Shown here: in pieces, positions 1 to 5,716 of the stretch
Layout of the letters: each line of letters opens with the position of its first letter
Position numbering within the stretch: position 1 is the stretch's first letter
The notes under the pieces: generated by a model
What the model was told of the DNA's origin: nothing
Database searches by the model: none
Seen by the model: only the letters and a program-made list of their open reading frames with translations
Made by a program: the position numbers and the translations under genes
From: Escherichia coli
GTDB lineage: Bacteria > Pseudomonadota > Gammaproteobacteria > Enterobacterales > Enterobacteriaceae
Reading direction: 5' to 3' (one strand)
Length of the DNA: 5,716 nt
NCBI RefSeq assembly: GCF_013315695.1
Contig: NZ_CP054357.1

Positions 1-423
1 ACTATCGTCATGGCAATATCTCTTTTCGCGTTATCCTCAACATCCAGCACAGAACAACATTTTCACATTATAAAAATATTCGGTGGAGGCTATTTAATAT
101 ACATAGGATTAATGGGTTTAATTAATAAAAAAAACAAACAAAGAAAAGAGCAAAAACCTTTTTTGATACCATTATTAAACCCCAAGGCGTATCTTTTCTT
201 TGCTGCGTTAATACCAACCTTTATAGATAATAATACAAATATCACATTAAACTTTTTTATATTGGGTGTTTTATTTATATTTATATCATTCCTAACAGAT
301 CTTATTTACATAGCTATTAGCTTAACGATAAGGGATAAATTGACGCCATCATTCTCAAGATACATAAGCATATGTAGTTCCATTTTTATATTAGGTACAG
401 GTATTTATTTTATTTTTACGTGA
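1..423 (+). CDS. LysE/RhtB-family exporter, C-terminal ~140 codons; the frame is open from base 1, so the 5' end lies outside the linear window (it continues from 5567..5716 if the molecule is circular)
   Basis: The frame is open from position 1 (ACT ATC GTC ATG..), so the ATG at 10 is internal. The translation is highly hydrophobic with several predicted TM segments and the motif NPKAYLFFAALIPTFI, matching the conserved NPK..FL.ALFPQF region of RhtB/LysE-type translocators as I recall it. Stop TGA at 421-423. AT-rich codon usage. Confidence 0.75.
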   Translation, partial: TIVMAISLFALSSTSSTEQHFHIIKIFGGGYLIYIGLMGLINKKNKQRKEQKPFLIPLLNPKAYLFFAALIPTFIDNNTNITLNFFILGVLFIFISFLTDLIYIAISLTIRDKLTPSFSRYISICSSIFILGTGIYFIFT

Positions 424-480: not shown

Positions 481-1197
481 CTATTTCAGTATGGCATATT
501 TTTTATTTGGTGATTGTTCATTAAAATAATATCCGCTTTCGTCATCAACTAACACGCATGCTTTACGATAATCTCCACACTTCGAGAACTCGGCCAATGG
601 AGCTTTTTCTTTCCATTCTTTTAACATGGATTCATGTTTTTTCTGTTCTTCCATTAGCGAACTAATATTCATTTTGAGATATTCAGCATAGAAAACAGGA
701 GCGATCATTAGCAATAAAAATAATACAATCAACACAATTACCTTTTCGACAATCCTTGTTACTGTATACTTCTCCATTGTTTTTCTAATTATACCTGTCG
801 CAACTTCGGCCTCTCTGGTCGTCTGCTTTAATGATTCCTTTATCTCTTTACTTGTTTGCTCCTCGAAATCAACCCACTCTTTCTTTACATCATTGAGAGT
901 GAAAGATAATTTTTCGCGGAGTAATGACGTTAGTGTATCTGAGACTGATTTCTGTAATTTACAAGATGCCTCATCCATTCCTTTATTAATATAAAATTTA
1001 ACATTAGACACACTATCCCTAAAGGAATAAGAAATTCCAGAAACAACTTTACCTTCACGTTCAAGAGTACTTGTAAAGGTATTTAAGTCATTCACTCTTT
1101 CATTAAGCAGAGTAATTAGCCTGTTCATTTCTTTTATTTGTTTATCATTATACGCAACAAGAGCAGCAATTTTTCTTGAATGTTCATCCAATTGCAT
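481..1197 (-). CDS. Hypothetical membrane protein, 238 aa: N-terminal coiled-coil-like region, one TM helix, small Cys-containing C-terminal domain
   Basis: ORF with a GGAGG Shine-Dalgarno 9 nt upstream of the ATG at 1197, only 20 nt after the mobA stop. The N-terminal ~150 aa are rich in K/E/L/I with heptad-like spacing; one strongly hydrophobic segment (VIVLIVLFLLLMIAPVFYAEYL); the C-terminal ~60 aa contain CGDYRKAC. Clearly more AT-rich than adjacent mobA. I recognise no family. Confidence 0.7.
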   Translation of the reverse strand: MQLDEHSRKIAALVAYNDKQIKEMNRLITLLNERVNDLNTFTSTLEREGKVVSGISYSFRDSVSNVKFYINKGMDEASCKLQKSVSDTLTSLLREKLSFTLNDVKKEWVDFEEQTSKEIKESLKQTTREAEVATGIIRKTMEKYTVTRIVEKVIVLIVLFLLLMIAPVFYAEYLKMNISSLMEEQKKHESMLKEWKEKAPLAEFSKCGDYRKACVLVDDESGYYFNEQSPNKKYAILK

Positions 1198-3003: not shown

Positions 3004-3078
3004 CAACCACCACTCACACACAGACGCTAAAACCATTGCCAAACGAAACACGGGAAATCACCCCAAACCTACCCGCTC

Positions 3079-3097
3079 AAAAAAACGCCTACAGGCG
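3079..3097 (-). terminator. Short hairpin plus T7 run just beyond the ori (possible rep transcript terminator)
   Basis: The minus strand reads CGCCTGTAGGCG followed by TTTTTTT (plus-strand A-run 3079-3085). The stem is only 4 bp, so this is weak. Confidence 0.3.
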
Positions 3098-3130
3098 CTG
3101 TTATCTGATAAGGCTTGTTATCTGGTCTCA
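3090..3130 (-). other. ori: ColE2-type replication origin (Rep binding and priming site) immediately 3' of rep
   Basis: The minus strand reads AAAATGAGACCAGATAACAAGCCTTATCAGATAACAGCGCCTGT, with CAGATAACA repeated. This matches my recollection of the ColE2-P9 minimal origin (TGAGACCAGATAAGCCTTATCAGATAACAGCGCC). The rep stop codon TGA (3128-3130) is the first triplet of this element. Confidence 0.7.
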
Positions 3131-4057
3131 TTTTGCGAGATCTGGATCACATTTTAGTTTTCGATAGTATGTGGCACGACTGATCCCTAACGTCACCCAC
3201 GGCTTCAGAGTTCGTGCCGATGTGGCAACGGCTACACGCTTTGATTTCTGACCTTTAATAGCCTGATTTTCTGATGAATTTGCATTACCGCCCTTACGAC
3301 CTCGAGCAGCCTGTACCGCGGAAAAGCCTTCAGGAGAGAATTTGCGGTAGGTGTATTTCGCAATACTCTTGCCAATAGCCCGACATTCAGCCGGAGAAAG
3401 CGGAACGGGAAGCGATGCGTTGTACATTTCGACACGCTGAATCACTGCATCAAGCCACGGTGAGAATGCTGGCCAGCCCTGACGAATCGCCCTGTAAGAC
3501 CATTTACGGCCCTTTTCGAACAGATACCAGTTTCGCCCCATCCCGTAATCTTTATCGACGCGACGGCGCGCTGAGGCGCTCAAATCAAGATAATCCGCCA
3601 GTTCGTCGAGGGTATAGAGTTCCCAACGCCATTCCACCACCTGCCATTCCTGGTGGAACGGATTTTTGCAGATCAGGCCGCTGTAGTTCACATCCGCGCC
3701 CAGTTTTTCACACAGCGCACGCTCAATCACGGCAGCGTATTTGAGCGCCGAAGCCGATGCATCCGGCGCGGTTCTCACCGGAAGAGTGAGCGCGTAGAGC
3801 AGATGCGCGTGCCCGTTACGTGGATTTTTTACGGTGATGTTCGGGGCCGGACAGTTCCGGTCGCTCCAGTCGATCGCTGCCCCCGTCCGGTCAACGTCAA
3901 AGGCCAGCCAGTGCTGCGCATGTGGCTGGTTCTGCTGGATGAAACGGGCAAGGATGGCGATATCTTTCGGTAGAATGCGAACGCCGTACGTGAAATCGTT
4001 CGTACAGTACGGTTTGTGCGGTAATTTTTCCCTGAAGAGTTGAAGTACGGCGCTCAT
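3128..4057 (-). CDS. rep: ColE2/ColE3-family replication initiator Rep (plasmid-specific primase), 309 aa
   Basis: Translation MSAVLQLFREKLPHKPYCTNDFTYGVRILPKDIAILARFIQQNQPHAQHWLAFDVDRTGAAIDWSDRNCPAPNITVKNPRNGHAHLLYAL... is near-identical over long stretches to ColE2-P9 Rep as I remember it. GGAGG sits 12 nt upstream of the ATG, and the cognate ori-like sequence lies directly downstream. Confidence 0.9.
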   Translation of the reverse strand: MSAVLQLFREKLPHKPYCTNDFTYGVRILPKDIAILARFIQQNQPHAQHWLAFDVDRTGAAIDWSDRNCPAPNITVKNPRNGHAHLLYALTLPVRTAPDASASALKYAAVIERALCEKLGADVNYSGLICKNPFHQEWQVVEWRWELYTLDELADYLDLSASARRRVDKDYGMGRNWYLFEKGRKWSYRAIRQGWPAFSPWLDAVIQRVEMYNASLPVPLSPAECRAIGKSIAKYTYRKFSPEGFSAVQAARGRKGGNANSSENQAIKGQKSKRVAVATSARTLKPWVTLGISRATYYRKLKCDPDLAK

Positions 4058-4155
4058 GTGTTAGGATTTCCTCCGTGTGTTACGACCCACACGCCCCTTG
4101 AATTTTCGTGACAGTCTTGGCGGATCGGCACGAATTTCAGGGGCGTTTGTTTTTC
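4040..4155 (+). ncRNA. Candidate antisense RNA I (copy-number control RNA complementary to the rep mRNA leader); boundaries approximate
   Basis: Plus-strand promoter-like elements TTGAAG (4040-4045), 16-nt spacer, TAGGAT (4062-4067), overlapping the rep start codon. A long imperfect hairpin plus T-run ends at about 4155. ColE2 replicons are known to use an antisense RNA of about 115 nt against the rep leader. With this promoter the transcript would be about 80 nt, so the true 5' end is uncertain. Confidence 0.45.
4094..4155 (+). terminator. Rho-independent terminator-like hairpin plus T-run (3' end of candidate RNA I; same structure in complement forms the rep leader stem-loop)
   Basis: Left arm CCCCTTGAATTTTCGTG (4094-4110), right arm CACGAATTTCAGGGG (4129-4143), imperfect with one or two bulges and an 18-nt loop, followed by CGTTTGTTTTTC (4144-4155). 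Confidence 0.5.
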
Positions 4156-4163
4156 AGTTGGTT

Positions 4164-4192
4164 ACACTACACCCAACGGCAAATCCTGTCGA
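4164..4192 (-). promoter_or_regulatory. Putative rep promoter (minus strand: -35 TCGACA, 17-nt spacer, -10 TAGTGT)
   Basis: Reverse complement of 4187-4192 is TCGACA and of 4164-4169 is TAGTGT, separated by 17 nt. The predicted start near 4157 would give a ~100-nt rep leader fully covered by the candidate RNA I. Pattern-based only. Confidence 0.3.
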
Positions 4193-4213
4193 TCCTTCCC
4201 GAAAACCAGACCC

Positions 4214-4241
4214 ATTTACCATAACTCCTCTTGTACGTACC
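4214..4241 (-). other. XerC/XerD core recombination site (cer/psi-like multimer resolution site)
   Basis: The minus strand reads GGTACGTACAA-GAGGAG-TTATGGTAAAT. The XerD arm is identical to ColE1 cer (TTATGGTAAAT) and the XerC arm differs from cer (GGTGCGTACAA) at one position; the central region is 6 bp, as in dif and psi rather than cer's 8 bp. Accessory sequences would extend to about 4430 on the XerC side. Confidence 0.65.
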
Positions 4242-4342
4242 CTCTAAAACGCTCTCAATCGCTTTCTGACGCAAAAAACTCAAAAAGACAAGATAAACCT
4301 AGGGAAAACACAAAAAACGCGTCAGAATCGTTTTTAGGGGTC

Positions 4343-4356
4343 TGCATAACTATGCA
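4343..4356. promoter_or_regulatory. Perfect palindrome TGCATA-AC-TATGCA: candidate ARG box (ArgR accessory site) for the cer-like site
   Basis: 14-bp perfect palindrome about 120 bp from the XerCD core on the XerC side. It resembles the ARG-box half-sites (TGAAT....ATTCA) with an A-to-C substitution; cer-type sites require ArgR and PepA binding about 100 bp from the core. Confidence 0.35.
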
Positions 4357-4481
4357 CAAAAGCGATTAATGATCGGTTTCACCCCTTCAGAAGCGCGAAC
4401 TGGTCAAAACAGCAAACTTTCTCATCCAGAAAGCCAGCTGAACTAACCCGCATGAAAACAAATTTCCAAACATATCCAGTC

Positions 4482-4508
4482 TGGACAACGAAATATCGAC
4501 AATATAAA
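4482..4508 (+). promoter_or_regulatory. Putative sigma70 promoter for the cargo operon (-35 TGGACA, 15-nt spacer, -10 TATAAA)
   Basis: TGGACA at 4482-4487 and TATAAA at 4503-4508, about 100 nt upstream of the ATG at 4610. The spacer is short; pattern-based only. Confidence 0.3.
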
Positions 4509-4609
4509 ACATCATAATCGTGTTTATGGCGTGTAAAAAAGCTTACAAGAGAATTAGCATTGAAGAGTCATAACAACAAATTCCAAAAATCAAACCAGAG
4601 GATAGGAAA

Positions 4610-5560
4610 ATGAATAATTTTATAAATGAATGTATTTCCGCTCCGAGAATAAACGGCATGGCAGAATTTTTCTCATCAACTGCATCAGGGGAAAAACACA
4701 AACCTTTTAGACTAGTAGAAATAGATGATCGGCTTTTTCATTCTTATGATTACATTAAGTTTGCCAAACACCTCACAAAAAACAGCGGCCCTTTCGTTAA
4801 TCATTATTTTTGCAGTATACCATACAGCAAGGAAGAAGAGTGCAGATTAGGAACAACAGTAATAAAATACGCAATCACGCTAAACAAAAAATTAAACACA
4901 TGGTGTCTTGGTATGGCTGAGGGCGCAATGGCAAGAACCATTTCAGAATTATCAAAAGGAAACATACAAACATTAACAACCAGTCCAACAAAAGAAAATG
5001 AACATGCATTTTTTAAGTATAGCTCAAGTGAAAACGCTTATTTTATTTGCACTCCATTTTTCCTGTTAGAGGAAAGACTAAAAAATTCAAATCTTAAACA
5101 ATTTAATCAAGGATTCGATATTATAATAGAAGACACCACATTTCAAATGTACTCACCTAACAGATCTGGGCAAATAAACCACGTAAAAAGGCTATTAAAT
5201 AATGATGGTATTTTCATATTTACAGAAAAACATAGTTCAGAACATGATGAATATCAAAAAAGAGAAATCCAAAAAGATTATTCATTCAAACAAAGGTATT
5301 TCTCGAAAGATGAGATTAACACCAAAAAGGAAATCGTACTAAACACAATGAATTTGAATGAAGTTAGTGTTGACGATATGCTTTCCGCAATTAAACAACA
5401 TTTTAAATACGCATCAATATATTGGAATAGCGGAAATTTTTACTCAATCGCCGCCAGCAATTCACTAAAACACATATCAACATTTATAAATTTATTACCG
5501 AAAGCTGCAATTCCTATGGAATATGTATATGAAAAGCTCCCACGAAATATATCATGGTAA
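4610..5560 (+). CDS. Hypothetical protein, 316 aa; possible class I SAM-dependent methyltransferase-like Rossmann core (tentative)
   Basis: SD AGAGGA 7 nt upstream of the ATG; AT-rich. The central region has MTase-like motif spacing: LGMAEGAMARTI (glycine-rich, motif I-like), then about 65 aa later FDIIIEDTTF (motif II-like), then VKRLLNNDGIFIFTE (motif III-like). No canonical GxGxG and no (D/N/S)PP(Y/F) DNA-MTase motif. Stop TAA at 5558-5560. Confidence 0.75.
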   Translation: MNNFINECISAPRINGMAEFFSSTASGEKHKPFRLVEIDDRLFHSYDYIKFAKHLTKNSGPFVNHYFCSIPYSKEEECRLGTTVIKYAITLNKKLNTWCLGMAEGAMARTISELSKGNIQTLTTSPTKENEHAFFKYSSSENAYFICTPFFLLEERLKNSNLKQFNQGFDIIIEDTTFQMYSPNRSGQINHVKRLLNNDGIFIFTEKHSSEHDEYQKREIQKDYSFKQRYFSKDEINTKKEIVLNTMNLNEVSVDDMLSAIKQHFKYASIYWNSGNFYSIAASNSLKHISTFINLLPKAAIPMEYVYEKLPRNISW

Positions 5561-5566
5561 GTAAAC

Positions 5567-5716
5567 ATGGAATATTCAACATTATTATCATTTGCTATCG
5601 TAACCTTATCGCAAACTATATCAATAGGGCCTGGCGTTGCATTGGTTATAAACAATGCCTTTTCACATGGATTAAAGTCATCAATAAAAACAAGTATATA
5701 CATAAGAATTGGCGAG
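5567..5716 (+). CDS. LysE/RhtB-family exporter, N-terminal 50 codons; 3' end runs off the window (continues at 1..423 if circular)
   Basis: ATG at 5567, 6 nt after the stop of the 316-aa gene. MEYSTLLSFAIVTLSQTISIGPGVALVINNAFSHGLKSSIKTSIYIRIGE has the hydrophobic N-terminus and S-x-GPG motif typical of LysE/RhtB translocators (RhtB: ..[20 protein letters not shown]..). There is no stop before the window end, and the window ends exactly on a codon boundary. Confidence 0.75.
   Translation, partial: MEYSTLLSFAIVTLSQTISIGPGVALVINNAFSHGLKSSIKTSIYIRIGE

Follow-up and report, generated by a model that had tools for sequence, protein, structure and literature searches.

What is the function of a short inverted repeat that brackets an A-rich stretch of DNA upstream of the replication gene of a small plasmid? 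The sequence analysed here in its entirety (5,716 nucleotides, the window) is a complete plasmid of Escherichia coli of 5.7 kb that encodes a Rep of the ColE2 type and a MOBQ relaxase. The initial annotation, made from the letters of the sequence, had pointed to two 9-nucleotide arms separated by 46 bp within what was presumed to be the accessory region of a cer site, and had offered two readings: intrinsically bent DNA that forms part of an accessory-protein architecture, or a remnant left where cargo genes had been inserted. We conclude that this 64-bp feature is probably the middle portion of the accessory arm in an XerCD multimer-resolution site of the ArgR/PepA-dependent cer type. The nature of its spacer and that of its arms can be considered separately.

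The plasmid and its cer-type Xer site

Besides rep, the plasmid carries genes for a MobA/MobL relaxase and a TraD-like protein, and AT-rich cargo with a LysE-family translocator. A plasmid of equal length (CP077345.1, E. coli FDAARGOS 1389, 5,716 bp, MOBQ) is 99.8% identical in the region of the cer site.

The pattern of an Xer core occurs once in the window, with 0 mismatches, where 0 matches are expected from 200 shuffles, and both half-sites are also found in ColE1 cer. Read along the minus strand, an ArgR box (4356..4343) is followed by the segment that contains the inverted repeat, and then by the XerC/XerD core (4241..4214). The repeat spans positions -86 to -23 relative to the XerC site, lying between the ArgR box and the core, and its placement by the initial annotation inside a cer-like Xer accessory region is thus upheld. 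The equivalent of the ArgR box in ColE1 is TGCATAGGTATTCA at -113 to -100, and of 111 unique cer-like sites 103 have the motif where it is expected. The half-sites, the spacing of the ARG box, the phased tracts and the homology of the accessory region are all those of a cer-type Xer multimer-resolution site, and on these features of its sequence we assign the window's site to that type. A working site of this kind would resolve dimers in a reaction that requires XerC, XerD, ArgR and PepA and is confined to a single molecule. The core has a 6-bp central region, so that a 28-bp psi- or dif-like site is joined to an accessory region of the cer type. The coordinates of all these elements are collected in Table 1.

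Table 1. Elements of the cer-type site and its neighbourhood, in window positions. Positions relative to the XerC site are given within the description.
Element	Position	Strand	Basis
ColE2-type Rep	4057..3128	-	Pfam Replicase PF03090, E 6e-42
Xer core, 28 bp: XerC half-site GGTACGTACAA (4241..4231), GAGGAG (4230..4225), XerD half-site TTATGGTAAAT (4224..4214)	4214..4241	-	
Accessory sequences, XerC side of core; outer limit approximate, 4409-4432	4242..4432	-	Homology
Outer segment CGTTTTAG; pairs with CTAAAAACG and encloses the inverted repeat	4244..4251	-	
Core-proximal arm, minus-strand GCGTCAGAA, -31..-23	4264..4272	-	Sequence; clade-A conservation; aligns with the family 3' arm
Spacer with phased A/T tracts, predicted to be curved	4273..4318	.	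A-rich on plus strand, T-rich on minus strand
Core-distal arm, minus-strand TTCTGACGC, -86..-78	4319..4327	-	Sequence
Outer segment CTAAAAACG; partner of 4244-4251, overlaps the -10-like TAAAAA	4329..4337	-	
Equivalent of the candidate Pcer of ColE1: GTGCAT (4357..4352), 15 bp, TAAAAA (4336..4331)	4331..4357	-	Sequence and alignment; assignment as Pcer putative
ArgR-box-like palindrome TGCATAGTTATGCA, -115..-102	4343..4356	-	Sequence; position in the family

On the other side of the core there is a promoter-like pair TCGACA-17-TAGTGT (4164-4192, minus strand) that reads into rep and is kept in relatives. It lies 20-75 bp past the XerD side, so that the probable promoter of rep would directly follow the Xer site and share its orientation. 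The rep leader carries, on the strand opposite rep (4088-4154, plus strand), a 17-bp imperfect hairpin CACACGCCCCTTGAATT / AATTTCAGGGGCGTTTG followed by TTTGTTTTT. It has the appearance of a terminator stem such as that of the antisense RNA I of ColE2-type plasmids, and in Rfam it matches PK-repBA weakly, below threshold (19 bits). Just downstream of rep, at window ~3095-3135, the minus strand reads GAGACCAGATAACAAGCCTTATCAGATAACAGCGCC, which we take to resemble a ColE2-type origin; the covariance model of cer gives a weak match of chance level close to it (3026-3109, E 0.11).

Elsewhere in the plasmid, the interval between mobA and the gene of the TraD-like protein (~2325-2395) contains GTTTCTCGACGAAGGAGAGAAAC and then TAAGTGCGC, with a 9-bp hairpin CATCCCTGA/TCAGGGATG at 2368-2390. 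Presumably this is a likeness to an oriT of the RSF1010/MOBQ type with its nick region. Within the AT-rich cargo, an ORF of 316 amino acids (4610-5560, plus strand) has methyltransferase-like Pfam matches that are all sub-threshold, one of 238 amino acids (481-1197, minus strand) has no Pfam match, and the ORF of the LysE-family translocator spans the ends of the window (5577-5716 with 1-423, plus strand).

The inverted repeat and its spacer

The inverted repeat is exactly as it had been described, with TTCTGACGC (4264-4272) and GCGTCAGAA (4319-4327) being 100% complementary, and the spacer is indeed A-rich; its 46 bp comprise 30 A, 8 C, 5 G and 3 T (65% A). The arms have no Watson-Crick extension. 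A tenth pair, between 4273 and 4318, would be G.U and would exist in the minus strand alone. There is also a direct repeat, AAAACTCAAAAA / AAAACACAAAAA, with its copies 30 bp apart.

Repeats of this length are readily found. Perfect inverted repeats of at least 9 bp with a spacer of at most 60 number 7 in the real window against a mean of 2.0 in dinucleotide shuffles of it; when the 552-bp intergenic region is shuffled, at least one such perfect 9-bp repeat appears in 11% of cases. A 9-bp repeat is thus not rare by chance, and its significance must rest on context and conservation rather than on the repeat alone. The arms are enclosed by a further pair of complementary segments, and this outer helix (4244-4251/4329-4337) forms in the predicted folds of 4242-4340. 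Around the first repeat and the ArgR box there is nested a second perfect 9-bp inverted repeat, AATCGCTTT / AAAGCGATT, at 4257-4265 and 4359-4367, with the two halves 93 bp apart and an overlap of 2 bp with the first arm.

Searches against Rfam find no family over the region of the feature, with three sub-threshold matches elsewhere in the window. Standard promoter and terminator scans, in which spacers of 15 bp are disallowed, report nothing at the feature either in the window or in ColE1 cer, and a literature search with the feature's sequence strings found nothing relevant.

Curvature of the spacer

In cer-like sites the DNA that separates the ArgR site from XerC/D is curved by A/T tracts, which are phased and conserved (PMC2831885). 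DNA rich in A/T tracts is wrapped by PepA, the phasing of the tracts being thought to ease the wrapping (PMC2655662), and PepA has no recognisable DNA-binding motif (bioRxiv 10.1101/2024.04.05.588136).

The window conforms well to this description. A dinucleotide wedge model with approximate angles of the Bolshoy/Trifonov type places the predicted curvature maximum of the whole plasmid at 4286, with about 80 degrees over 42 bp and a plateau at 4280-4300, inside the spacer. For 4242-4342 the predicted ratio of end-to-end distance to contour length is 0.80, compared with 0.96 in shuffles, 0 of 1000 of which are as low. The Fourier power of AA/TT, which requires no model, peaks at 9.5-10 bp at a level reached by 0 of 500 shuffles, and thus the A-runs are phased. 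All four clades of cer are predicted to be curved (z between -3 and -7 relative to shuffles), that of the window most strongly.

The reading of the spacer as bent accessory DNA has therefore gained from the curvature prediction, in that the predicted maximum of the plasmid coincides with the spacer and agrees with the published phased tracts of cer. Prediction and the precedent of cer together give good support to the view that the spacer is bent DNA within an ArgR/PepA/XerCD synapse. In such a synapse the phased A/T tracts would generate a strong intrinsic bend in the ~100 bp that lead from the ArgR box to the core. This bend would lower the cost of wrapping the DNA around PepA and ArgR in the interwrapped structure, and the interwrapped synapse would allow XerCD to resolve plasmid dimers and not to make them.

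Conservation of the repeat in the cer-like family

How widespread is this arrangement? The region 4060-4610 is matched by 1,294 plasmid records, the majority of which are 80-90% identical to it. Small plasmids of the ColE2/Col156 type for the most part match from 4060 to ~4423-4432, while many large IncF plasmids carry a 276-bp copy equivalent to window 4134-4409 that adjoins colicin-type genes. The shared block ends roughly 80-105 bp beyond the repeat, at ~4409-4432. One of the 276-bp copies, in NZ_CP024856.1 (4001-4276), is 85% identical and has a colicin E1-family immunity gene nearby. The cer copies embedded in IncF plasmids suggest the remnant of an integrated small Col plasmid.

A wider set was assembled by scanning metagenomes with a degenerate core pattern and adding the plasmid loci, to give 111 unique core-plus-upstream sequences; a scan of viral contigs gave 3 loci only. 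The accessory region of the window aligns almost without gaps with those of ColE1 and 101 other cer-like sites from the ArgR box to XerC, and thus the geometry is constant. In the comparison with accessory regions of other plasmid Xer sites that the initial annotation proposed, the region is homologous and conserved, with an inverted repeat at the same place in nearly every clade. The sequences of the arms are different from clade to clade. In the ColE1 type they are GGCGCGATCGCGGCAG / CTGCCGTGATCGCGCTG, with a variant GGTGCG...CGCACC, in a second large clade GCGTTTCTGGCGG / CCGTCAGAAACGC, and in further clades GCAATT/AATTGC, GCGCGATTT/AAATCGCGC and others; the clade of the window, clade A, has TTCTGACGC / GCGTCAGAA.

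Among 103 unique sites the longest repeat at the position of the feature averages 7.6 bp, against 4.7 bp in shuffles, and repeats of at least 9 bp are present in 38% of sites compared with 0.3% of shuffles. The pairing was examined as a 16-bp helix in a MAFFT alignment of the 49 sequences that lie outside the window's clade. Here 85% of cells are paired, against 72% on shuffling (reached in 0 of 500), and sliding the partner columns lowers the value to 29-49%. For covariation the helix scores 0.406 compared with 0.202 for shuffled alignments (again 0 of 500), with changes on both sides in 10 of the 16 pairs. These sequences are related and the statistics therefore overstate their independence, but the compensatory differences from one clade to another are still plain. 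Wobble pairs in this set comprise 85 G.U and 27 A.C, where permutation leads us to expect 102 and 55, and this favours the accessory-to-core strand only modestly. As judged from these alignments, the inverted repeat at a fixed position is a co-varying feature of the whole cer-like family.

The ColE1 hairpin and Rcd

A precedent for a structured RNA from this region is provided by Rcd, a 70-nt RNA encoded in cer and predicted to form a single stem-loop (PMC5935869; PMC2831885; PMC4393325), with a conserved 15-nt sequence (Sharpe 1999, as cited in PMC5935869). It is made from Pcer, the hexamers of which are only 15 bp apart, in a direction such that ArgR is met first and XerCD second (PMC5935869; PMC2831885; PMC4393325). 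RNAs of the Rcd type are characterised by their expression in dimers and by binding to tryptophanase, with a rise in indole. The reviews and secondary papers give size, direction and spacer length for Rcd and Pcer, but not coordinates.

In ColE1 the 70-nt segment bounded by the inverted repeat (3829-3898) is predicted to fold into a single long stem-loop at -35.5 kcal/mol (z -5.5). It lies on the strand that would be transcribed from the accessory sequences toward the core. The complementary strand folds much more weakly, and a 70-nt stretch downstream of the core has a z of -1.2. A scan of the sequence of ColE1 cer reveals two promoter-like pairs with a 15-bp spacer. Transcription from TTGCAT-15-TAAAAT, which overlaps the ArgR box, would begin at the base of the stem; the other pair, TGAACG-15-TACAAT, overlaps the XerC site. 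We favour the former as Pcer, because Pcer is described as central in cer, because its reported mutations spare recombination, and because the size of the RNA fits and the hairpin is exceptional. The repeat-bounded hairpin of ColE1 is, we infer, probably Rcd itself.

The reference sequence of ColE1 (NC_001371.1) reads GCGCGATCGCGCAG at 3831-3843, while nearly all copies of the ColE1 type in metagenomes and plasmids have GCGCGATCGCGGCAG, with one more G and, as a result, an uninterrupted hairpin stem. The reading in NC_001371.1 may be a 1-nt error in an old reference or a real variant.

The repeat in the clade of the window

A covariance model constructed from the other clades (R1) matches the window at 4243-4342 on the minus strand with 28 bits (E 4.5e-6). 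In the resulting alignment the pairing register of the family is not kept. The arm at 4264-4272 aligns with the right (3') arm of the family, and its partner lies about 11 model positions upstream of the family left arm, a shift of the stem by roughly one helical turn; the loop has 46 nt, compared with ~36 nt in the family. On this alignment the arms of the window correspond, in a weakened form and a shifted register, to the repeat found on either side of this T-rich stretch in other clades. The feature is likewise homologous to the rcd segment of ColE1 cer, taking the ColE1 hairpin to be the putative Rcd.

Could the repeat nevertheless serve this plasmid as the stem of an Rcd-like checkpoint RNA that still functions? 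We regard this as possible, though tentative. A putative weak, Pcer-like promoter, GTGCAT-15-TAAAAA, would fire in plasmid dimers to give a minus-strand RNA of ~65-75 nt, running from roughly 4330 to 4262, and the arms would pair its ends around a U-rich loop. The position and spacing are homologous to those of the ColE1 hairpin and candidate promoter, few columns of the clade are as well conserved as those of the arms, and the stem seems not to have been lost but to have formed anew in another register. Moreover the only variation at pairs 25/70 and 8/97 is among A-U, G.U and G-C, as minus-strand RNA pairing predicts. Pair 8/97 is G.U in 19 sequences, A-U in 14 and G-C in 6 but never A.C, and in clade A 90% of the cells of the outer helix are paired.

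Against such an RNA, the minus-strand fold is no more stable than that of shuffled sequences (-13 kcal/mol, z -0.44); the plus strand folds at -12.1 kcal/mol with z -2.0. For the accessory-to-core strand the mean z is -0.6 over the window's clade; the corresponding means are -6.4 in the ColE1 clade and -3.25 in the second large one. Folding thus predicts no stable single stem-loop of ~70 nt of the Rcd type in the window, the stem of 9-10 bp being thermodynamically unremarkable. Nor is there covariation of the inner helix within the clade beyond that of shuffles (39 distinct sequences), and taking the inner and outer helices together the covariation within the clade is not significant. A.C mismatches are frequent, and no strand signal for a minus-strand RNA is seen in clade A (22 G.U against 29-42 A.C). 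The one variable pair of the stem is A-U in 16 sequences, G-C in 3 and G.U in 1, with 19 unpaired. The promoter raises difficulties of its own. The -10-like hexamer TAAAAA is without the conserved final T, a start 7 nt past it would fall inside the left arm, and in a sub-clade with TCCTG the complementarity runs over the presumed -10. Finally the conserved motif of the loop has diverged, in that GGGTGGTTTGTTGCC, kept in other clades, is replaced by CCCTAGGTTTATCTTG in the window. The motif GGGTGGTTTGTTGCC is the best candidate for the conserved 15-nt loop sequence of Rcd, an identity that is putative.

The same data bear on the reading that the complementarity has no function now, and is a decaying or accidental remnant of an ancestral Rcd stem, with the arms kept because the accessory region is young or constrained as DNA. 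This too is possible, though slightly less likely. Chance would supply about two 9-bp repeats in each window, the hairpin is unremarkable and there is no covariation in the clade. Among the 27 closest relatives the repeat has a mismatch in 10, is perfect in 14 and has only wobbles in 3. Yet simple decay does not sit easily with the pattern of conservation. Most columns of the arm at 4264-4272 are invariant or nearly so across the 39 clade-A sequences, and arm columns generally are mostly invariant while neighbouring columns of the loop vary, in a clade with a mean column identity of 82%. The repeat is at the same position in nearly every cer clade, and where the register of the family has been lost a new complementary left arm is present.

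We consider it unlikely that the arms act as double-stranded DNA, providing two symmetric contacts for proteins of the synapse (the paths of PepA, FIS or ArgR) joined by the bent spacer. Such contacts would agree with arms that are invariant in sequence and not co-varying in the clade of the window. The centre of the repeat (4295.5) is moreover placed symmetrically around the predicted plateau of the bend (4280-4300), and FIS and PepA are reported to bind within cer. However, clades that have the same host proteins have wholly different arms, GCGCGATC, GCGTTTCTG and TTCTGACGC, and such differences fit base pairing and not a shared protein motif. In addition PepA is reported to have no recognisable DNA motif, and by reading we find no FIS-like or ArgR-box-like consensus in the arms. 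Split half-sites of an ARG box (ATTCT...AGAAT) were considered within the arms and rejected, being absent from arms of the ColE1 type.

A bolder proposal, which we rate as very unlikely, is that in the large ColE2/Col156-type clade the cer hairpin has re-formed at a distance of one helical turn upstream. Its product would be an Rcd-like RNA, diverged and with a long loop rich in U, transcribed toward the adjacent rep promoter and the control region of the antisense RNA. The sensing of dimers would then be coupled to the expression of Rep, either instead of or besides the indole checkpoint.

It is highly improbable that cargo insertion left the feature behind as a scar, or that a terminator is formed on the plus strand by the stem and then TCGTTTTT: cargo genes do start about 280 bp away, and TTTTT follows 2 nt after a plus-strand stem whose fold has z -2.0, but the repeat is in the middle of a block conserved in ~1,300 plasmids with differing cargo, with homology ending only at ~4409-4432, which contradicts the insertion remnant suggested initially, and the terminator is rejected on its atypical 46-nt loop, a T-run that is not conserved (it is absent in the TCCTG sub-clade) and a terminator scan that reports nothing at the feature.

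Relation to known sites

The assignment of the segment to the accessory arm of a cer-type site can be set beside systems already described. ColE1 cer is the closest. It has the same or nearly the same half-sites, an ArgR box ~100 bp from the core with phased T-tracts between, an inverted repeat that flanks a T-rich stretch, and the same order of accessory sequences, core and replication gene. The two differ in the central region (6 bp in the window, 8 bp in ColE1 cer) and in the host replicon, which is of the ColE2 type in the window and not of the ColE1 type. The stem is 9-10 bp with a 46-nt loop in the window, compared with ~16 bp and a structured loop of 36 nt in ColE1, and the left arm is shifted by ~11 nt. 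The z of the fold is -0.4 against -5.5, the -10 hexamer is TAAAAA against TAAAAT, and GGGTGGTTTGTTGCC is not kept in the window.

The site mwr of pJHCMW1 and other ArgR/PepA-dependent cer-like sites share with the window a core of two 11-bp half-sites around a central region of 6-8 bp, as well as accessory sequences of ~180 bp that include an ARG box (PMC2699498). The likeness to mwr is drawn from its description; its dependence on osmolarity and supercoiling is tied to a poor ARG box, whereas the box of the window is a good palindrome. The psi site of pSC101 resembles the window in that its core is 28 bp long, the central region taking up 6 bp, and in that its accessory sequences depend on PepA (PMC9113270), but it uses ArcA and not ArgR, whereas the window has a box of the ArgR type and an accessory region homologous to that of cer, not psi. 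The PepA-wrapped operator of carAB P1 is rich in A/T tracts, the phasing of which is thought to ease wrapping (PMC2655662), but this is a transcriptional operator and not a recombination site, and it has no sequence homology to the window.

The feature is thus explained as part of a known plasmid-stability element, in which the curvature of phased tracts in the accessory DNA of cer has already been described. Neither the co-varying repeat of the family nor the shifted, weak stem of the window alters current understanding. The shifted and weak stem belongs to an abundant clade found on small plasmids of the ColE2 type and also embedded in IncF plasmids, and from this it follows that the Rcd checkpoint may be altered or lost there.

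One metagenome contig has two cer-like cores on the same strand (1289-1316 and 1718-1745), 429 bp apart, of which one is without a recognisable ArgR box.
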